Positions 6,484 through 63,905 of a stretch of 64,000 nt of DNA are shown here, in pieces. The DNA is from a virus (lineage: Duplodnaviria > Caudoviricetes), in the IMG/VR virus record IMGVR_UViG_3300012173_000004, positions 39,044 to 103,043 of that record. The stretch is one strand, 5' to 3'. The translations under genes and the position numbers were made by a program. The notes below the pieces were generated by a model that saw nothing but the letters and a program-made list of their open reading frames with translations, had not been told where the DNA came from and did not search any database. How positions within the stretch are numbered: position 1 is the stretch's first letter; every line of letters starts with the position of its first letter.

Positions 6484-6738
6484 ATGAACCGTCGCGAAAA
6501 ACCAAATGCCAAGCTCGGTAAGATTACACAGGTGGATGAAGGTGTTGCATTAAGGTATCACAGGCGCAAAGACGGTAGCGTGGTTATGCACACCATCTGT
6601 TGTGACTGTTGCTTAGTCCATCTTGAACAATACATTGTAAATAAAAATTATATCTCCGTTAAGGTTTGGAGAGTGGATAATGCTACCCGAAAGCTCAGAA
6701 CCAAATTTAAACGTCAAGTGCTACGAGATCAATCATGA
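6484..6738 (+). CDS. hypothetical protein with CCDC..H motif
   Basis: ATG at 6484 directly after nrdJ; CCDCCLVH. Confidence 0.5.
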   Translation: MNRREKPNAKLGKITQVDEGVALRYHRRKDGSVVMHTICCDCCLVHLEQYIVNKNYISVKVWRVDNATRKLRTKFKRQVLRDQS

Positions 6739-7192
6739 AGCTTTGTATCATGATTTGATGCTGTTCGCAGACTATGTTCGTTTAACGTACAAGGAGAAGC
6801 CTCGCTTATTTGGCGTACCCCGTGGAGGCTTAATAATAGCTGGCCACTTGGCACATATCCTTGACATCAAAGAAATTCTTGCCTGTCCAGTTTCACTCAT
6901 GCCTTTGATGCGAAATCTTATGAAACCGACAGATCTAATTGTTGAAGATATCTATGATTCAGGTAAAACGTACCGTGAGATACGTGAATATGTGTGGCCT
7001 GAAGTACGTGTTGTGTCCCTTTATTGTAAGCGGGATTATCCTGAAGATTGTGAGGGCCAATCTCAATTTATAAGGTCACTTGACGTCGCACCTGATACCT
7101 TTGTATTATTTCCATGGGAGAAGATGGCTTATGAGTACTATGAAAAGTTTAAGCACAACAGGTTTGTCCAAGGTTGGTGGGCACAAAGCTGA
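6680..7192 (+). CDS. type I phosphoribosyltransferase (Gpt/Hpt-like)
   Basis: GVPRGGL, PRPP-binding LIVEDIYDSGKT, C-terminal FPWE. Confidence 0.85.
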   Translation: MLPESSEPNLNVKCYEINHEALYHDLMLFADYVRLTYKEKPRLFGVPRGGLIIAGHLAHILDIKEILACPVSLMPLMRNLMKPTDLIVEDIYDSGKTYREIREYVWPEVRVVSLYCKRDYPEDCEGQSQFIRSLDVAPDTFVLFPWEKMAYEYYEKFKHNRFVQGWWAQS

Positions 7193-7604
7193 TGGTGGCA
7201 AATTAGACTTTTCGCTACTACCTACTGTTTTATGGCATCTTGTTCAAGTTTATACTTTAGGCGCTATCAAGTATGGTCGAGGTAATTACAAGAAAGGAAT
7301 GAAGTTTAGCAGGATCTTCGCGGCTACATGTCGTCACTTATTTCGCTGGTGGTGGTTTCGTGAAAAGTTAGATCCTATCGATGGCCAGCATCATTTAGCT
7401 TCAGCTGCCTGGGGTTGTTTAACATTGATGGAATACGAAATCATACACCCTGATAAAGATGATCGTGTTAACGGACCAGCTGATGAACTAATAACACTGT
7501 TTCCTGAAAAGGGCATTGATTACTTGGCTATGATTGACGTTAAGGGCTGGGAAGATGACGTACCTATAAAGGTAAAGCTAAAAAGTAAGAAGAGGAAGAA
7601 GTAA
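7131..7604 (+). CDS. dATP/dGTP diphosphohydrolase (DUF5664 family)
   Basis: K.DGGKLDFSLLP..GAIKYGRGNY.KG..RH..D..GQHHLA.AAW; start at ATG 7131 after GGGAG. Confidence 0.8.
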   Translation: MSTMKSLSTTGLSKVGGHKADGGKLDFSLLPTVLWHLVQVYTLGAIKYGRGNYKKGMKFSRIFAATCRHLFRWWWFREKLDPIDGQHHLASAAWGCLTLMEYEIIHPDKDDRVNGPADELITLFPEKGIDYLAMIDVKGWEDDVPIKVKLKSKKRKK

Positions 7605-40370: not shown

Positions 40371-41039
40371 ATGCAGACAAGAAAATTGGTCGTTTCATTT
40401 TCAGGTGGAGCAGATAGCACTACACTCCTCTACGAGGCTATCCACATGAGGGGCAAGGAGAACGTGCAGCCTTTGTACTTCTTCTACGGACAGAAGCACG
40501 CTCCTGGAGAACGTGAGGCTGTTAAAGCCATCGGTAAAGAGTTGGGAATTGCTATTCCTGAACTTGGCATCGATCTCAAACAATTCGGCCGATCGCCACT
40601 AACGGACCACAGCATCCCTATCCCGACGAAAGAACAAAACAAACAGGCGTCTACGGTTGTTCCGTTTCGTAATACCATGTTCCTGGTGATGTCAGCTGCT
40701 TACGCCACTGTGAATGACTTTGATGACATTGGTCTAGGACCAACACGAGAAGATCTTCCTGAGTATCCAGATTGCCGTCCCGCATATATTGACGCTATGC
40801 AATGGGCTTTGCGTCTAGGTGATCGCCATCATCATCTCAACATTGAGACGCCTTATATTGACATGTGGAAAAGCGATGTTATCGAGCAGGGCTTAAGTCT
40901 TAACGTCCCTTATCATTTGACGCACACTTGTTACAATGGTGTGTGGCAACAGCCATGCCGAGAATGTGACGCTTGTCGTGAGCGTGCTGATAGTTTCACG
41001 GCAAATGGTGTGGTGGATCCACTTTTACTCTCTAAGTAA
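40371..41039 (+). CDS. queC: 7-cyano-7-deazaguanine synthase
   Basis: SGGADS, YGQKH, VPFRN, YPDCR, C-terminal C..C.EC.AC. Confidence 0.93.
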   Translation: MQTRKLVVSFSGGADSTTLLYEAIHMRGKENVQPLYFFYGQKHAPGEREAVKAIGKELGIAIPELGIDLKQFGRSPLTDHSIPIPTKEQNKQASTVVPFRNTMFLVMSAAYATVNDFDDIGLGPTREDLPEYPDCRPAYIDAMQWALRLGDRHHHLNIETPYIDMWKSDVIEQGLSLNVPYHLTHTCYNGVWQQPCRECDACRERADSFTANGVVDPLLLSK

Positions 41040-42887: not shown

Positions 42888-43646
42888 ATGACTGAACAAC
42901 GATTTTTACGTTTGGAAAAGACAGAAGGCGTCTTTGGCCCTACCCTCCAAGGTGAAGGGGTCAACATTGGTATGCCTGTTAGTTTTGTGCGCCTCTATGG
43001 TTGCGACTTCCGGTGCAGCTGGTGCGACACACCTTTTTCCCTAGGCAAGGATAAGGGAGGTGAATGGTTACTGCTTAAAGCTGATGAAATCATCAGTCGT
43101 CTTGGTGAAATTGGTTGCAAGAATGTTGTCGTTTCCGGTGGCAATCCTCTCATACAACCTAAACCGGCTTTAGAAGAATTCTTTACTCGTCTCGTTGAAC
43201 GTGGATATTGGATTCAAGTTGAAACACAAGGTTCAATTTTCCCTTCACCTATTGTGTTACACATGACAGACTTCTGGTCATTATCACCAAAGCTCCCTTC
43301 AGCAGGAAAGATGGAATCTGAAAATTGGAAGGCTGTAAATACTTTCATCATAAAGGTTCCATCCAAAGCGTTGCAGCTGAAATTTGTAGTCTCAAATCTT
43401 GTGGATTACAATTATATCAAGATGCGTTTGGTATCTGATTTAGTAACAGAGCACCGCAACGTACCAATCATTTTACAGCCGGAGGGTATGCAGCTTGAAA
43501 AGTTTGATATCAACTACTATCGTAATCGCCTTGACTACCTTTGCGGTCTTGTTGGTAATGATCTGTCTTTTTGGGGAAATTACAAAGACGTACGAGTCTT
43601 ACCTCAACTCCACAAGGTAATTTGGGATATACAAAGAAAGCGCTAA
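42888..43646 (+). CDS. queE: 7-carboxy-7-deazaguanine synthase (radical SAM)
   Basis: GPTLQGEG, CDFRCSWCDT, SGGNP, VETQG, SPKL, PQLHK. Confidence 0.93.
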   Translation: MTEQRFLRLEKTEGVFGPTLQGEGVNIGMPVSFVRLYGCDFRCSWCDTPFSLGKDKGGEWLLLKADEIISRLGEIGCKNVVVSGGNPLIQPKPALEEFFTRLVERGYWIQVETQGSIFPSPIVLHMTDFWSLSPKLPSAGKMESENWKAVNTFIIKVPSKALQLKFVVSNLVDYNYIKMRLVSDLVTEHRNVPIILQPEGMQLEKFDINYYRNRLDYLCGLVGNDLSFWGNYKDVRVLPQLHKVIWDIQRKR

Positions 43647-51602: not shown

Positions 51603-52058
51603 ATGTACACAATTGAAAAAGATATTAGTTGGGAAATGGGCCACAGGCTTACACACCATGAAGGTAAGTGCTTTAATTTACACGGCCATTCCTACCGTGC
51701 AGTCATTACGTTGAGTGCTGAAAAACTCGACAAGAATGGTATGGTCGTTGACTTCTACCATTTCAAAAAGGTCAAAGATTACATTGATAAATACTGGGAT
51801 CATGCCCTAATGCTTAACATGGAGGATCCTATCGTAGCTGTTATTAATACTAGAAAAATGTTTAACGTGCTTAAGCGCAACCTTAAATTGTGCCTAGTGA
51901 ATGAAGACCCCACCGCAGAAAACATTGCAAGGTGTCTGGCAGATGTAACACGTAGTTTACTGGATCAAGAGATGGGAGATCATGCTTCAGTGACGAGTGT
52001 CACTGTATACGAGACGGCGACGAGTTCTGCAACTTATGTGAAAGAAGGATTTCTATAA
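51603..52058 (+). CDS. queD: 6-carboxytetrahydropterin synthase
   Basis: GHRL..H.GKC.NLHGHSY, GMVVDF, WDH, PTAEN, YET. Confidence 0.93.
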   Translation: MYTIEKDISWEMGHRLTHHEGKCFNLHGHSYRAVITLSAEKLDKNGMVVDFYHFKKVKDYIDKYWDHALMLNMEDPIVAVINTRKMFNVLKRNLKLCLVNEDPTAENIARCLADVTRSLLDQEMGDHASVTSVTVYETATSSATYVKEGFL

Positions 52059-52762
52059 TGTCAGCAACTGCTTGTTCCCGTTGTGGTGCTAAACTACTAG
52101 AACAATCTGCTTCAACATTATGTGAGAAGTGTCATGGAGCCTGGCTAGATGAAAGGCAACAACTATCCCGTTTCTATGATGTACCTATCAAAATGATTGA
52201 AGGTATTAGGATGGTGCTTGACGGCTTACAAGAAGCGTACCCTGCTTTTAAGCCTCAAGCAAACCACATGGATCAGACTCCAGCACGGGTAGGTAGGATG
52301 TTCTTAGAAATTTGTTGGGGTCTGGGCGTTGATCCTGCTAAGCATTTAGGCACGACATTTGAGGAGACCCAATATGGTGGAATTGTACTCGTCTCAGGAA
52401 TCCAGTTTACGAGCCTATGCATGCATCATTTTGCGATCTTCAGAGGTATTGCACACGTTGGCTATATCCCTAATAGACGCATCGTCGGCCTTTCAAAAAT
52501 TAACAGAGTCGTTGAAATACTTGCAGCTCGTCCTCAAGTCCAAGAACAGCTCACCTTCCAGATAGCGGACCTATTACACTCAACACTCAAGCCGAAAGGG
52601 ACGATGGTCGTCTTAGAGGGGAGCCACGATTGTATTGAGGTTAGAGGTGTACGCTCAAAAGGTTCTATCACAAAAACGTCAGAAGTACGAGGTATTTTCC
52701 ATGACAACAAATTCAACTGTAAGGATGAGTTTATGGCTTTGATAGAAACTAAGAAAGGATAG
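52058..52762 (+). CDS. folE: GTP cyclohydrolase I with extra N-terminal Zn ribbon
   Basis: TPARV, SLCMHH, GLSKINR, RPQVQE, H.C..RG; N-terminal CSRC..CEKC. Confidence 0.92.
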   Translation: MSATACSRCGAKLLEQSASTLCEKCHGAWLDERQQLSRFYDVPIKMIEGIRMVLDGLQEAYPAFKPQANHMDQTPARVGRMFLEICWGLGVDPAKHLGTTFEETQYGGIVLVSGIQFTSLCMHHFAIFRGIAHVGYIPNRRIVGLSKINRVVEILAARPQVQEQLTFQIADLLHSTLKPKGTMVVLEGSHDCIEVRGVRSKGSITKTSEVRGIFHDNKFNCKDEFMALIETKKG

Positions 52763-58413: not shown

Positions 58414-59058
58414 ATGACAAAAGTAACTGTTGAAGACGTGGTGAATTTATCTCCACGTGAACTTATTACAAAGATGACTACCAAGGGTGAAGAACCAGCA
58501 ATAGTGGTGGTAACGGAGCCCACCGAGGAAGGGCCGCCCGCATCTCTTGTGCTATCAACTCAACCTATTGTTCCCACGGAACAGGCTGCTCCTGCTTCAG
58601 AGCAAGTACAGGTTGATACAGATCCTGCTGTGAAGTCTGAATTCAACAAGAAGCAGTTGAAGGGGTTATTTGATGATGCACACATTTTTGTCAAAGGGCA
58701 AACCTTTAGTGCTGTGCATGGCATCAGTGGCGGTACTGTTGAAGTAGTATCTGTTGAAAACTCTTCCGGTCGTGTCAAGTTTAAGGTGCAGGAAACCGGT
58801 GAGATCTTCAGCCAGGCTGCAGCTGTGCTTCGTGGGGGTAAGGAAGAATTGCCCTACAAGAAGGGTGATTTCATTCTATTTGAAGACCATGTCTATGAGA
58901 TCATCGGCCTAAACCCGGCCAATCGCAATGTTGTCATCAATCTGAACGGAGTGAAACGTTATCTCAAAATTTCAAAGGTGGCGCCAGTTGGTGGATCAGA
59001 TGAGAATGTGCCTACAAATGGAGAACAGCAAGTTAGCCCACAAACACCCACGGCCTGA
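58414..59058 (+). CDS. hypothetical protein
   Basis: AAGGAG SD, ATG 58414. Confidence 0.6.
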   Translation: MTKVTVEDVVNLSPRELITKMTTKGEEPAIVVVTEPTEEGPPASLVLSTQPIVPTEQAAPASEQVQVDTDPAVKSEFNKKQLKGLFDDAHIFVKGQTFSAVHGISGGTVEVVSVENSSGRVKFKVQETGEIFSQAAAVLRGGKEELPYKKGDFILFEDHVYEIIGLNPANRNVVINLNGVKRYLKISKVAPVGGSDENVPTNGEQQVSPQTPTA

Positions 59059-59650
59059 AACAACGTTTCGGGAACTCGTGGATAATGCGGTGCATTCATA
59101 TATACACAGGGATGAAATTAATACTGTGTACAATATTGCATCGCAAAAGGAGTTAGTTGATTTCATTGACTACGTAGCGCATTGTCCTGTTTGTGCTACG
59201 GGCATGAAATTGGCGCCTTCAGATAATATTGTTGTTCTTTTTAAAAAGTTAGATCCAGGTGCGAAGTGTCCTGAAAAGGCTTATGAAGAGGATGCAGGCT
59301 TTGATCTTTTTTCTCTTCACACTGTGGATTTATTGCCAGGCCAGAAGGTAGAAGTATCAACAGGCCTTGCAATGGAAATGCCAGGTCACCTGTATGCTAC
59401 CATTGATGGCAAAAGTTCATTTGGCGCGCAAGACGTCTATACTTTTAGAGGGGTGTACGACGCAGGATACCGTGGATATATTAGTGCTTTCATGTGCAAT
59501 AATGGTACTGAAAGAATTACGATCCAACGTTACCAAAAGTGTGCGCAGCTTATTTTCCACCACAGGCTCCCGATACAACTTGTTACGACTAATGAACTTA
59601 GTCCTTCCTCAAGAGGCGAAGGTCGCTTCGGATCGACTGGAAAGTTTTAA
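59000..59650 (+). CDS. dut: trimeric dUTPase with N-terminal extension
   Basis: DAGFDL, GKSS, GVYDAGYRG, AQL, RGEGRFGSTG; start uncertain. Confidence 0.9.
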   Translation: MRMCLQMENSKLAHKHPRPETTFRELVDNAVHSYIHRDEINTVYNIASQKELVDFIDYVAHCPVCATGMKLAPSDNIVVLFKKLDPGAKCPEKAYEEDAGFDLFSLHTVDLLPGQKVEVSTGLAMEMPGHLYATIDGKSSFGAQDVYTFRGVYDAGYRGYISAFMCNNGTERITIQRYQKCAQLIFHHRLPIQLVTTNELSPSSRGEGRFGSTGKF

Positions 59651-62208
59651 TGGATCAGCCAGTTTCTCCACCATTACTTCAAGGCCATTATTCAGTAGAT
59701 GATACGCCTTGTAAGAGTTGTCCTCTTTGGGAAACTTCTGTTTCAGGTGCTATTCGCCGCAGTGCTGTTTATGGCCGTGGAACGGGCCGCTATGGTTTAA
59801 TGTTCATTACCCCCACAGTTAACACTGCGGATCTTCTTAATGGACGCCCTTTGACAAGCAGAACTACTTCTGCTTTGTTTTCTGATCTTCTGCGCCAAGT
59901 TGGTATCTCCGAATCTGAGTGTTTTATTACGTCTACTACTAGATGCCGCCCCCCAGGAGATCGTTTACCTGAGGCCAGTGAATACAAGGCCTGTTTTGTT
60001 AAACACGGCAAAATTGATTTTCCAAGTACTCGTCCAAAGCTGATAATGTTACTTGGAGCTATCAGTTTGAAGGCAATTTTGGGTTTACCTAAGATCACTG
60101 AACGTCGGGGTATTTTTTATGATTGTGATATCTTTGGTGATCCTCCTATCAAGGCAATGGCCACGTTTCACCCTGATGCTGTTCTTGTAAAACCGGCATA
60201 TGGCCAAACAGTATTATCAGATCTTAGACGAGCCCGAGAATTTGTAGAAGATATCAAGGTCACTAGCACGTTGCCTACCAATAATAAGATTCTTGTTCGG
60301 GACAAGGAACAATTCACGTTATTAACAGAGTTTCTAAGGACTCAGGCTAAAGAAATAGCAGTTGACTTAGAAACAACAGGCCTTTCCTTTTACCGTAATG
60401 AAATAGCATCCATCAGTTTTTCATGTACTCTTGAGGATGGTAATATGTTAAGTGTAGGTATACTTACTAGACCCAAGGTTGGTTGGTGGCACGCCGAGTT
60501 AAAAGATCCCTGGGTCAAAGGTATATTTACTCAGCTTTTTAACAATCATGAAATTGCCTTTATCTTTCATAACGGAGACTTTGATACAAAGTTTCTTTGG
60601 TTCAATGGCTATTATGTTAAGAACAGTTATGATACCATTGATGCCCACTTGTTATTGGATGAGAATAGTTCCCATAAATTAAAGGATTTAACTACCTTAT
60701 TCATTGCTGAGAAGGCAGGTTACCAACACAAGATTCTTGAAGAAGTAGGTGATCCAGCTGAAATTGCCAATGCTTCTCCTGAAGTACTTCTGGATTATAA
60801 CACTGATGATACCTACACCACTAAGGTGCTTAAGGATCAATTTGAAATTCGTTTACGCAAGGAAGATTTGTGGGACTTTTATGTTGATCATGCCATGCCT
60901 ACACGCAGAGTATTTACTAAGATTTCATTTCGGGGTATCATGGTAGATCGTCCGCGTGTTCTAGAAACATCTTCTCTTTACAGGGCTAAGATCAAAGCAC
61001 TTGAAAAGGATCTTTTTAGTGCCGTAGGTTCTACGTTTGAATGGACTTCATATCAGCAGCTTGCAGACATGTTATATGTGAAGTTACATTTGCCTGTTTT
61101 TGCTACAACCAAAAAGGGCAAGCCTTCAACTAACAAGGAAACATTAAAGTTATTAGAAGACAAGCATATTGCCCCTGCACTTATCATCAAAATGAAGCAT
61201 ATGCAGAAGATGCTTACCACTTACCTTGATGGCGATGATGGCATGGGCAACATCAAAGGAGGCATGCTACAGTACCTTGACCATAATGACCGTATACATT
61301 CTGATTTTTTAACACATGGCACAACTAGCGGTCGACCTTCAGCAAAAGCTCCAAGTCTTTTAACTATTCCACGTGATCCTGAGATACGCATGAATTTCAT
61401 GGCTCCTCCTGGGTGGGTTTTAATAGACTGCGATTATTCACAAGCTGAACTGGTATTACTAGCTTTTCTTTCAGGTGACCCTAGATTGATAGAGGCCGTG
61501 ACTTCTGATGACATGCATTTACATACTCAGCTCAACATGATGCGCCTTACGATGGATAAGGTAAATAAGGAAACTCGTGTCATTGCTAAGACCATTAATT
61601 TTCGAAAAGCATATCGTGGAGGTGGTAGAGGAGCAGCTGGTGTACTGAAGATGACTGAAGATGAAGCTGAAGCTTTGTTTAAAAAATGGGACGAAACTTA
61701 TTATATGGTCCCCCAGTGGTGGGCTGAACAGGAACGCCAATGGCGCGAACGTGCTGTGATTGATGGCATTTATGGTAGACGTAGACACTTCCCGCCCGCG
61801 TACGATCGAAAGACGGCAGCTTACTATGATCGTCTGTCTGCGAACTTTCCTTGTCAGAATGGTGTGGCAGATACTACTAATAGAAGTCTGTATACCATTG
61901 ACGCTGCTTTAGAAAGACTTTTTGGTTGGTCTTTAGAAACGATGTATCAAGTTCCAGGCATTGTTCTATCTGTGCATGATGCTATCATCTCTGAGGCTCC
62001 TGAAGAACATGCAGAAGACATTTGTAGCTTAATGACTGAGATTATGCGTCTTCCATTACCCAAGATAAATATTTCTTTAAAACTTGACTCTAAGCTAGTA
62101 CACCGTTGGGGCGAAGAAGCTACTAAGGAAAAAGACAAGGTTGTTGAGAAGACAATTGAAGATGATATTCGTGAAGAACTACGTGACGACCAGGTAAGGA
62201 GATTTTAA
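59650..62208 (+). CDS. polA: family A DNA polymerase with N-terminal family-4 UDG-like domain and 3'-5' exonuclease
   Basis: CKSCPL, CRPP, FHP (UDG-like); DLETTG, HNGDFD, YNTDD (exonuclease); DYSQAEL, AKTINF, VHD (polymerase). Confidence 0.93.
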   Translation: MDQPVSPPLLQGHYSVDDTPCKSCPLWETSVSGAIRRSAVYGRGTGRYGLMFITPTVNTADLLNGRPLTSRTTSALFSDLLRQVGISESECFITSTTRCRPPGDRLPEASEYKACFVKHGKIDFPSTRPKLIMLLGAISLKAILGLPKITERRGIFYDCDIFGDPPIKAMATFHPDAVLVKPAYGQTVLSDLRRAREFVEDIKVTSTLPTNNKILVRDKEQFTLLTEFLRTQAKEIAVDLETTGLSFYRNEIASISFSCTLEDGNMLSVGILTRPKVGWWHAELKDPWVKGIFTQLFNNHEIAFIFHNGDFDTKFLWFNGYYVKNSYDTIDAHLLLDENSSHKLKDLTTLFIAEKAGYQHKILEEVGDPAEIANASPEVLLDYNTDDTYTTKVLKDQFEIRLRKEDLWDFYVDHAMPTRRVFTKISFRGIMVDRPRVLETSSLYRAKIKALEKDLFSAVGSTFEWTSYQQLADMLYVKLHLPVFATTKKGKPSTNKETLKLLEDKHIAPALIIKMKHMQKMLTTYLDGDDGMGNIKGGMLQYLDHNDRIHSDFLTHGTTSGRPSAKAPSLLTIPRDPEIRMNFMAPPGWVLIDCDYSQAELVLLAFLSGDPRLIEAVTSDDMHLHTQLNMMRLTMDKVNKETRVIAKTINFRKAYRGGGRGAAGVLKMTEDEAEALFKKWDETYYMVPQWWAEQERQWRERAVIDGIYGRRRHFPPAYDRKTAAYYDRLSANFPCQNGVADTTNRSLYTIDAALERLFGWSLETMYQVPGIVLSVHDAIISEAPEEHAEDICSLMTEIMRLPLPKINISLKLDSKLVHRWGEEATKEKDKVVEKTIEDDIREELRDDQVRRF

Positions 62209-62705
62209 TGCGCATTGTTTTTACCGGTAGTCATGGTGTTGGTAAGAGTACTTTATTTGATCGAATTTACTCTCTAATACCCTTGCCTTTTGCCTTTGAT
62301 AGTTTTGTAAGGAACCATCCTAATCTCAAAAATTACAGTGCACGTACACAACAGCGTTATATTGACTTTTGCTACATATGGAAGCAATATTTGACGCCTT
62401 CTTACATAGCCTCTAGATCTATCTATGATACTTGGGCATATGCCAAGCTTACTGTGCATCCAGACTTTCACTACCATCTAATGAAATGGGCTGTGCGCCA
62501 CATTTGGTATGACTACGTGTTCTATGTTCCTATCGAATTTCCTTTGGTAAATGATGGCGTGCGCTTTAGCGATCCCAGTTTTCAAATAGCTCATGATAAG
62601 ACTTTGAAGTTGATACTTGATTACCACGGGGTCCCGTATCATACAATAAGAGGTACAGTTGATGAGCGTGTTCAGCAGGTAAAGGATATTCTGGGATATG
62701 ATTAA
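62208..62705 (+). CDS. P-loop nucleotide kinase-like protein (AAA_28/NadR-like)
   Basis: FTGSHGVGKSTL, RSIYD, YDYVFY, DGVR, GTVDER. Confidence 0.8.
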   Translation: MRIVFTGSHGVGKSTLFDRIYSLIPLPFAFDSFVRNHPNLKNYSARTQQRYIDFCYIWKQYLTPSYIASRSIYDTWAYAKLTVHPDFHYHLMKWAVRHIWYDYVFYVPIEFPLVNDGVRFSDPSFQIAHDKTLKLILDYHGVPYHTIRGTVDERVQQVKDILGYD

Positions 62706-63519
62706 ACAACCAGCATTATTACACACCCTACCCCTACACTACTTGAATGTTGTAGGGCCAGAATCAAATTTTTATATAGAGTCTGAGTATTGTTTAGAAA
62801 GTCTAATTTACAGGGGGTTCTTTAATGGAGTTGATTGCAGTAATTCAATTCTTGATTGTGGCGTTGGTATTAATGCTGACGTTTCGCAGGTTAATCCTAC
62901 GGTCACCGGTGACCGTGATTGGGCTGTTAAGTATTTTGAGCTTGCAGATATTTTGGGACCTGGTGTCGTCGTTGCCCCAGATATCCTAGGTTGTGCGGCG
63001 GCGACGCGTAAAAACTTTCAACTATACACTGAGATTAGTCCCTTACGGACTACTTGGATGTATGTGATACAAGGACAAACAATTGCAGAAGCAGAGGCAG
63101 AAATTGAGTGGGCCATCGCATCACCGACCGTCATCATGGTTGGTTTTCCTCGTGTTGTTCATTATTATGGCGATCCAGTTGATAGCGAAGCGCTAGGTAA
63201 AGTACGATGTCGCCTTATTGAACATTTTTTTAATAGGCTGGTATCAGCGGGTATGCGCATTCATATTTTAGGTATGAACAGTTTTGCTGAACTTCGTTTT
63301 GCAGCTGAATTGGGCATGTCTATTGATAGTCGTATTGCCTCGTTACTGGCAGTAGCTGGTTTGCAAGTGGATCCCACGCATCCTTTAAATAGACCGAAGG
63401 GTCTGCGAGTTGACATACTTCAACACTACAGCGTAGAAACATTAGAATTGATTGAAACTAATGTCTTTACTCTCAATGATTTTTTTGATAGCCTATGTCC
63501 GAAGAACCCGCTAACATAA
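62698..63519 (+). CDS. divergent TGT/DpdA-like (beta/alpha)8 protein
   Basis: Motif order ILDCG, APD, VIQG, VG, IHILG, SIDS mirrors transglycosylase barrels. Confidence 0.55.
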   Translation: MIKQPALLHTLPLHYLNVVGPESNFYIESEYCLESLIYRGFFNGVDCSNSILDCGVGINADVSQVNPTVTGDRDWAVKYFELADILGPGVVVAPDILGCAAATRKNFQLYTEISPLRTTWMYVIQGQTIAEAEAEIEWAIASPTVIMVGFPRVVHYYGDPVDSEALGKVRCRLIEHFFNRLVSAGMRIHILGMNSFAELRFAAELGMSIDSRIASLLAVAGLQVDPTHPLNRPKGLRVDILQHYSVETLELIETNVFTLNDFFDSLCPKNPLT

Positions 63520-63905
63520 ACACAGTCCTGCAGGTCAATGAATTAAATCTGCAGGGTGAGATGGCTCAGTGTCCAGCTTGGTTTTACTACTATGCTGCTC
63601 TAGCTATTGACGCTGAGGAGGGCGCAGACACTGCCACTCTCGCAGTCGAAACCTATGAGCAACTCTTAGCCGGAGATTATAAGAAACTACCGGCGATGAG
63701 CGATTTGACGCAAACAGAAATTAAGCGTCATTTTAGAAGTGATCCTAAGTGGCAAGCTTTAAAAGAACAGGAAACTAAGTTACGCACCAATGCAAAGTTA
63801 CTTGACAAGGCAGCGAAAGCATTAGAGATGAAGTCTCGTATGCTCATGTCAATTAACAAGCGGGATATGTACAAAAAGGGTGTTTTCACAGTTGAGCAAG
63901 ACTAA
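63495..63905 (+). CDS. UvsY-like helical protein
   Basis: All-helical; 'SDPKWQ..ALEMKSRML.S'; replication context. Confidence 0.6.
   Translation: MSEEPANINTVLQVNELNLQGEMAQCPAWFYYYAALAIDAEEGADTATLAVETYEQLLAGDYKKLPAMSDLTQTEIKRHFRSDPKWQALKEQETKLRTNAKLLDKAAKALEMKSRMLMSINKRDMYKKGVFTVEQD

Follow-up and report, generated by a model that had tools for sequence, protein, structure and literature searches.

Motif substitutions in the glycosylase-fused family-A DNA polymerase of an uncultivated phage with 7-deazaguanine genes are probably lineage signatures

Among the described systems closest to the polymerase analyzed here are the large fragments of bacterial DNA polymerase I (Pol I), such as Taq Klentaq, Bst BF and E. 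coli Klenow. The polymerase, P0001, is an 852-amino-acid (aa) family-A enzyme encoded by the polA gene at 59650..62208 on the plus strand of a 64,000-nucleotide stretch of viral DNA. This stretch (hereafter the window, to which coordinates refer unless a contig is named) is the last 64 kb of the 103,043-bp IMG/VR viral contig IMGVR_UViG_3300012173_000004, which CheckV rates as complete. With the Pol I large fragments P0001 shares the fold, the catalytic core and the 3'-5' exonuclease motifs, as well as Asp in motifs A and C and the motif-B residues Arg, Lys, Phe and Tyr. In contrast to them, it is only about 30% identical, has no 5' nuclease domain and carries an N-terminal Fe-S domain resembling uracil-DNA glycosylase (UDG); it also has PSLLTIP in motif 2, Arg in place of both motif-B Gly, QNGVAD in motif 6, and no Glu in motif C.

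The same three-domain architecture is found, over 87-95% of the length, in UDG-fused PolA proteins of the Serratia phages Tlacuache and Serbin, Clostridium phage CP3, Pseudomonas phage PMBT14 and Bacillus phage SP-10. Like P0001, these proteins have DYSQAEL in motif A and a residue other than Glu in motif C, but they are at most 28% identical to it and nearly always keep the motif-2 Asn and Gln and both motif-B Gly. DpoZ of the Z-genome (2-aminoadenine) phages is likewise a phage family-A polymerase in a genome with a base-substitution pathway. In contrast to such genomes, the present one has 7-deazaguanine genes and a transglycosylase, and no PurZ-type adenylosuccinate-synthetase homolog (searched with PF00709, the 103-kb genome gives nothing at E <= 1, and every control genome gives a match). 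This gene content is closest to the DpdA3 systems of Cellulophaga phage phiST and Campylobacter phage CP220 (PMC10516641), where FolE, QueD and QueE likewise accompany a distant tRNA-guanine transglycosylase (TGT) homolog beside a DNA polymerase gene. Both phiST and the present phage encode a phosphoribosyltransferase (PRTase) and a nucleoside triphosphate pyrophosphohydrolase-like protein. The present phage differs from phiST in that it also has QueC and a family-A polymerase in place of PolIII alpha.

The first-pass annotation of the window had drawn attention to the unusual motifs of P0001 and proposed an active enzyme remodeled around the template and nascent base pair, possibly to handle a modified nucleotide as DpoZ does. 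In our analysis, the departures from the E. coli and Taq motifs are probably inherited lineage signatures and not a device for selecting modified deoxynucleoside triphosphates (dNTPs), with P0001 acting as the replicative, proofreading polymerase of an uncultivated phage of ~103 kb. The observed motifs themselves were confirmed in identity and position (PSLLTIP, NFRKAYR, QNGVAD and VHDA), as was the presence of the motif A and C Asp and of the motif-B Arg, Lys, Phe and Tyr. All lie on the plus strand and were placed by phmmer alignment to Taq. Motif 2 (61351..61371) reads PSLLTIP, where Taq and other Pol I have PNLQNIP; motif A (61432..61452) reads DYSQAEL (Taq DYSQIEL) and keeps the catalytic Asp595 and Glu600; motif B, the O helix (61576..61623), reads RVIAKTINFRKAYRGG against RRAAKTINFGVLYGMS in Taq and keeps Arg643, Lys647, Phe651 and Tyr655, which align with RxxxKxxxFxxxY of Taq. 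Motif 6 (61843..61872) reads NFPCQNGVAD against NMPVQGTAAD in Taq (NxPxQGTAAD in Pol I) with Asn732 and Gln736 kept, and motif C (61972..61983) reads VHDA against VHDE, with the catalytic Asp777 kept and the Glu replaced. By Pol I standards these residues are unusual: among the 90 Pol I sequences of cellular type that the homology search returned, PNLQNIP is kept in 84, both motif-B Gly in 85, the QG of motif 6 in 88 and HDE in 87.

The open reading frame and its translation contain three Pfam domains (PF03167, PF01612 and PF00476), all on the plus strand. The N-terminal family-4-UDG-like domain (59710..60195) matches Pfam UDG over residues 63-182 (E 1.3e-09, 38.7 bits) and has the four Fe-S-type Cys (21, 24, 99 and 115) that are invariant across the clade described below. 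The 3'-5' proofreading exonuclease domain (60295..60846; DNA_pol_A_exo1, residues 216-399, E 1.1e-15) contains Asp239, Glu241, Asp312 and Asp387, all invariant, and the nearly invariant Tyr383, corresponding to ExoI DxE, ExoII D and ExoIII YxxxD of the DEDDy pattern. The polymerase domain (DNA_pol_A, residues 439-822, E 1.3e-65) scores 222.3 bits against a cut-off of 34.3 and spans profile positions 6-381 of 381. The closest solved structures are those of Taq and Bst Pol I, at E about 1e-40 (4.6e-40 to 4.8e-34; residues about 400-820). An alignment of 29 sequences shows no variation at Asp595, Glu600 or Asp777. Judged from its conserved residues, P0001 looks like an active, proofreading replicase, and in this respect the annotation's view of an active enzyme is supported, the catalytic residues being intact.

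That the polymerase is instead decaying or non-catalytic, as VHDA and the loss of the two motif-B Gly might indicate, is highly improbable. P0001 does lack Glu in motif C and a pair of Gly that are normally conserved, and its UDG-like domain is without the GE..G motif; but across 26-29 sequences there is no or almost no variation at the two catalytic Asp, at Arg, Lys, Phe and Tyr of motif B, or at the exonuclease residues, the frame is open over its full length and strongly conserved, and a motif C with a residue other than Glu is normal in phage PolAs. In addition, no second replicative polymerase was found among the window genes scanned with Pfam, the remaining genome not having been scanned for one. 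As for the glycosylase-like part, the GE(A/G)LG and PFVGxAG motifs (PolA residues about 21-82; window 59710-59900) are kept in most clade members and replaced in P0001 and P0002. The fused UDG-like domain of P0001 is probably not an active glycosylase.

A megablast search of polA against 50,697 phage records gave no match, and tblastn against the same records gave at most 28% identity; no cultured relative of P0001 is therefore available. From a search of 5.8 billion proteins we obtained a sparsely sampled clade of about 30 UDG-fused metagenomic PolAs (P0001-P0030), whose polymerase domains are 39-81% identical and for which the next matches are cellular-type Pol I at about 30%. The clade consensus reads PSLL(N/T)IP, NF(R)K.Y(R/G)GG, CQNGVAD and VHD(A/S/N). 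Because the substitutions are conserved across about 30 proteins at this level of divergence, they are not a product of chance or error, and the alignment marks the motif variants as apparent lineage signatures under purifying selection, not noise. Within the clade, Leu571 of motif 2 occurs in nearly all members, and the change of Gly to Arg652 is old, while the change of Gly to Arg656 is restricted to the subclade P0001-P0013 and to L121. The analysis defines an uncharacterized PolA clade with a conserved two-arginine O helix.

For comparison, an IMG/VR scan provided 72 UDG-fused phage PolAs outside the clade, 70 of which could be aligned at the motif-C position. Only two of these 70 keep the motif-C Glu, the others having Ser (37), Ala (26) or Cys (5); as 68 of 70 distant phage PolAs are without this Glu, VHDA is ordinary for the UDG-fused architecture. 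Of the 72, 68 keep the motif-2 Gln, 60 the first of the motif-B Gly and 62 the second of them. In this comparison the changes of the motif-2 Gln and of the motif-B Gly come out as specific to the clade, unlike that in motif C.

Such a pattern raises the question whether the signature serves a clade-wide property unrelated to base modification, with the two O-helix Arg and motif 2 altering DNA affinity, processivity, strand displacement, or the fit to the UDG-like domain or to replisome partners. The signature is clade-wide and under purifying selection, and every clade member has the UDG fusion and the replisome order helicase, DnaB, primase, polA, kinase-like gene, 136-aa gene. Furthermore, the deep-branching member L121 (L121:10001-12559) combines a canonical motif 2, PNMQNIP, with a double-Arg motif B, NFRKAYRGG, from which it follows that the motif-B Arg arose independently of the motif 2 changes. 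However, an altered biochemical property leaves unexplained why Ser569 and Arg652 are lost in exactly those lineages that have no modification genes (see below); we consider it improbable as the explanation of the signature. In L121, a dUTPase gene and polA directly follow glycan/structural-type genes, and the contig stops about 350 bp past polA.

If the substitutions served the handling of a modified nucleotide, they would be expected to travel with the genes for the modification, here the que genes and the DpdA3-like transglycosylase gene (the que/DpdA3 module). Gene context was available for fifteen clade members, eight positive and seven negative for the module; for P0014, P0015, P0019, P0024 and P0027 this context extends no more than 10 kb to either side of polA. 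In the module-positive P0001, P0004, L006-8, P0014 (folE only), P0015 and P0022, a DpdA3-like gene lies between the kinase-like and 136-aa genes and folE/queD lie upstream of polA; in the module-positive L005 and L009 the DpdA3-like gene is present and the contig stops short of the folE/queD position. In the module-negative G002/L010, P0018, P0019, P0024 and P0027, the kinase-like gene is followed directly by the 136-aa gene, and P0017 and P0025 have no DpdA3-like gene downstream of polA. In the stretches fetched for the seven negative members, no folE or queD was found at the syntenic position upstream of polA, which in G002, P0024 and P0027 is the SbcC-helicase interval, or elsewhere. The best control is G002, in which QueC, FolE, QueD, QueE and a DpdA3-like gene are all missing from 65 kb spanning the whole early/replication region. 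Across the relatives with flanks covering both positions, the DpdA3-like gene is present or absent together with folE/queD, and since the flanking kinase-like and 136-aa genes adjoin in relatives without it, the transglycosylase gene behaves as a discrete insertion or deletion. G001 was also considered as a que-less relative and rejected: G001, G004 and G005 share the same PolA on contigs covering different arcs, G004 has QueE, QueD and FolE, and jointly the three carry QueE, QueD, FolE and the DpdA3-like gene.

In a maximum-likelihood tree with distant UDG-PolAs as the root, the members without the module fall into two separate groups, one pairing P0024 with P0027 and the other a set of seven rows termed B2, so that module status changes twice; a metagenome scan yielded no further independent que+/- transition. 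Most of the flagged substitutions are equally present without the module. Leu571 occurs in all eight positive members and in six of the seven negative ones, Asn737 (scored from motif strings) in 6/8 and 5/7, Gly738 in 5/8 and 5/7, Val739 in 7/8 and 6/7, and a residue other than Glu at position 778 in 7/8 and 5/7. Arg656 is found in four of the eight positive and none of the seven negative members, and is confined to one subclade. The module-less P0024 keeps NFRK. Conversely, among fifteen aligned DpdA3-linked PolAs outside the clade, the motif-2 Gln is kept in 13, the first motif-B Gly in 10 and the second in all 15.

These data bear directly on the proposed purpose of the remodeling. The DNA- and dNTP-contacting motifs do differ from Pol I in a conserved way, and this part of the annotation holds; the purpose assigned to it, the handling of a modified nucleotide, is not supported, as Leu571, QNGVAD and a motif C without Glu persist in the module-less G002/L010, P0018, P0019, P0017 and P0025. 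The annotation had itself reasoned that its interpretation would fail if the same substitutions were common in phages without modification genes, and this is largely what we find, both in the module-less clade members and in the 68 of 70 distant PolAs with a residue other than Glu in motif C. Similarly, the analogy with DpoZ receives no genomic support, given the missing PurZ homolog. In the phylogeny that the annotation had suggested as a check, most substitutions occur without the module, and only Ser569 and Arg652 track it, over two transitions. Sister phages with and without the que/DpdA3 module are natural controls, which makes co-adaptation of the polymerase directly testable.

A further argument comes from the gene two positions downstream of polA (62698..63519, plus strand), which directly follows the kinase-like gene, overlaps its end, and encodes P0121, a candidate DpdA3-like DNA-guanine transglycosylase of 273 aa. 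The Pfam TGT profile finds nothing in the whole genome, and P0121 has no Pfam or PHROG match and nothing at E <= 10 in tblastn against phages; its nature was revealed only by fold prediction and profile comparison. P0121 has 13 representative relatives among 1.84 billion proteins, and the family alignment keeps a TGT-like order of motifs (LDCGVG, PD.LG, VIQG, HLLGMN, SIDTR). In an AlphaFold2 model built from this alignment (pLDDT 87.6, pTM 0.88), the top 50 VIA-align rows are all tRNA-guanine transglycosylases, at Z 17.2-17.6 and a root-mean-square deviation of about 3.4 A over about 243 of the 273 residues. In a Foldseek search of a viral structure library, the phiST protein M4SLA5 (259 aa) is among the top three matches (template modeling scores 0.73/0.76, E 2.3e-11), and hhalign aligns the family profile (A3) with phiST gp042 over its full length (98.4%, E 9.5e-15, 246 columns), at an identity of only about 18%.

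The founding DpdA3 is CGPG_00065 of phiST, in the arrangement CGPG_00068 to CGPG_00064 (Hutinet et al., 2023; PMC10516641). In the phiST record, gp042 (259 aa) stands in the order QueE, FolE, MazG-like, small open reading frame, ATPase, gp042, small open reading frame, PolIII alpha, and from its length and its place in the gene order given in PMC10516641 we infer that gp042 is CGPG_00065. On the strength of the homology and the modeled fold, P0121 can be put forward as the "missing" DpdA of this phage, of a divergent DpdA3 type, which adds a member to a rare family. Among 73 distant IMG/VR loci, DpdA3-like genes lie beside polA in 16 (L014, L016, L020, L038, L040, L041, L042, L046, L047, L054, L058, L059, L067, L069, L076 and L082). 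Several loci have 10-350 bp between the end of the DpdA3-like gene and the polA match that follows, and the flank concerned often contains que genes too. The phiST DpdA3 candidate likewise sits beside polymerase genes.

Besides the transglycosylase, the window encodes on its plus strand queC (40371..41039; PF06508, E 3.5e-56), a queE-like radical S-adenosylmethionine gene (42888..43646; Pfam Radical_SAM, and phrog_2076, QueE-like, E 1.4e-41), queD of the PTPS family (51603..52058; PF01242, E 1.6e-32) and folE for GTP cyclohydrolase I (52058..52762; PF01227, E 6.1e-55). With this set of genes, the phage DNA very probably carries 7-deazaguanine. Going by gene content, the pathway of FolE, QueD, QueE and QueC would lead to preQ0 or a closely related compound; the DpdA3-family transglycosylase, as homology, fold and the published model suggest, would then exchange guanine in DNA for the preQ0-type base after synthesis, and the polymerase would only have to copy modified templates. 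Because the phage has its own DpdA3-type transglycosylase, a nucleotide-selective polymerase would be unnecessary. Position 7 faces the major groove, a side on which family-A enzymes tolerate substituents, and the contacts of these polymerases are made in the minor groove, away from this position. According to the account of Cahova (2016) given in PMC10520511, Bst Pol I sometimes takes 7-substituted 7-deazapurine dNTPs more effectively than the natural ones. DpdA3 is associated with complete G replacement, and all known phage 7-deazaguanine modifications have been proposed to be post-replicative (PMC10516641); a pre-replicative route for 7-deazaguanine was not found in our literature search. 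In phiST all G is replaced, yet the polymerase is of the PolIII-alpha type. The evidence mostly favors this ordinary reading of the polymerase; a phage polymerase specialized for 7-deazaguanine would overturn the view that such modifications all arise after replication.

Several observations weigh against reading the substitutions as lineage signatures that have no bearing on the modification. The negative relatives were scored as que-less from partial contigs, and activity of DpdA3 on DNA could not be reconstituted by the authors who described it and has never been shown (PMC10516641). The recurrent adjacency of DpdA3-like genes and polA hints at functional coupling and may reflect a modification coupled to replication; in the present phage, the polA, kinase-like and DpdA3-like genes even overlap end to end. 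A PF18909 dATP/dGTP diphosphohydrolase-like gene and a PRTase-like gene, which follow a class II ribonucleotide reductase (RNR) gene (window 6680-7604), would fit a route at the nucleotide level. Finally, Ser569 and Arg652 are present in all eight known positive members and in all 21 rows of the positive clades, and each occurs in only one of the seven negative members. The 21 positive rows have 173 nearly invariant columns; Ser569, Arg575 and Arg652 are among the only seven of these that differ in both negative lineages.

After loss of the module, the canonical residues Asn and Gly are back in P0027, Asn/Ala and Leu/His are found in B2, and P0024 keeps Ser and Arg; in B2, His776 of motif C has also changed to Tyr. 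In an unrelated DpdA3-linked lineage (L038, L040, L041, L054 and L058), the same Asn is replaced by Ala and the same Gly by Ser or Ala. With only two independent transitions, for which a sign test cannot fall below p 0.5, and a post hoc count of seven columns in 173, the signal is weak, and we regard the association of Ser569 and Arg652 with the module as suggestive but weak.

One could nevertheless suppose a partial co-adaptation, in which Ser569 and Arg652 (perhaps also Arg575 and His776) are kept because the DNA or the dNTP pool contains 7-deazaguanine. The polymerase could then be adapted to copying densely modified templates, or to incorporating a 7-deaza-dGTP derivative made with the help of the PRTase, the RNR, the kinase and the dGTP diphosphohydrolase, with DpdA3 mopping up residual G. 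Both independent module losses are accompanied by the loss of Ser569/Arg652, few conserved columns behave in this way, and the replacement of the same two residues in an unrelated DpdA3-linked lineage, the position of the PF18909 and PRTase genes next to the RNR gene (the phiST PRTase also lies near an RNR gene) and the translational coupling of polA, the kinase-like gene and dpdA3 all agree with it. On the other hand, P0024 has both residues without the module, and B2 is also non-canonical at these sites, which ties the link to particular residues and not to remodeling as such. Elsewhere, DpdA3-linked PolAs mostly have the canonical residues at these positions, phiST reaches full replacement with a polymerase of a different family, the module-less relatives retain the kinase-like gene, and the groove geometry described above places position 7 away from the enzyme's contacts. 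Taken as a whole, partial co-adaptation is a tentative alternative that we think possible but rather unlikely. A minor co-adaptation with the module limited to Ser569 and Arg652 is unlikely, slightly more so than the broader form. We would give no more weight to co-adaptation of these two residues in a polymerase tuned to fully 7-deazaguanine-substituted templates, or forming part of a nucleotide-level or replication-coupled route to complete G replacement. If such a replication-coupled route existed, the DpdA3-like enzyme encoded next to polA would work together with the polymerase and not long after it.

Several neighboring genes deserve mention beside the lineage-signature interpretation. 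On the plus strand, polA is abutted by a gene of the dUTPase family (58988..59650; Pfam dUTPase, E 7.4e-24), and its stop codon is overlapped by the P-loop kinase-like gene (62208..62705; Pfam AAA_28; PHROG thymidylate kinase). The conserved 136-aa gene (63495..63905, plus strand) directly follows the kinase-like gene in relatives without the transglycosylase. We rejected a role for the kinase-like gene in a nucleotide-level pathway or in the module, as module-less relatives keep it; comparison with the ATPase beside the phiST DpdA3 showed no similarity. The dUTPase-family protein (220 aa) is extended by about 90 aa at its N terminus, and a homolog is present in every que/DpdA3-positive relative examined and in no negative one; this gene may belong to the modification module and not to general dUTP sanitation. 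The PRTase and PF18909 genes could manipulate the purine nucleotide pool. The phiST PRTase, gp064 (L110:20278-20706), is 28% identical to that of the present phage.

With respect to the genome as a whole, the right-end series of polA, kinase-like gene, DpdA3-like gene and 136-aa gene continues, in G001, G002, G003, G004 and G005, straight into homologs of the first genes of the contig. Because the genes of the right end thus continue into left-end homologs in these relatives, the 103-kb record is a circularly permuted complete genome. The head-gene region, outside the window, contains another QueC-like open reading frame (G000:C1:10252-11466; about 404 aa), which is divergent and has a homolog in G003. 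The relative encoding P0022 has an intein with a LAGLIDADG homing endonuclease inserted in its AAA_28 kinase-like gene (L106:12635-14419), the product of which is 594 aa long.

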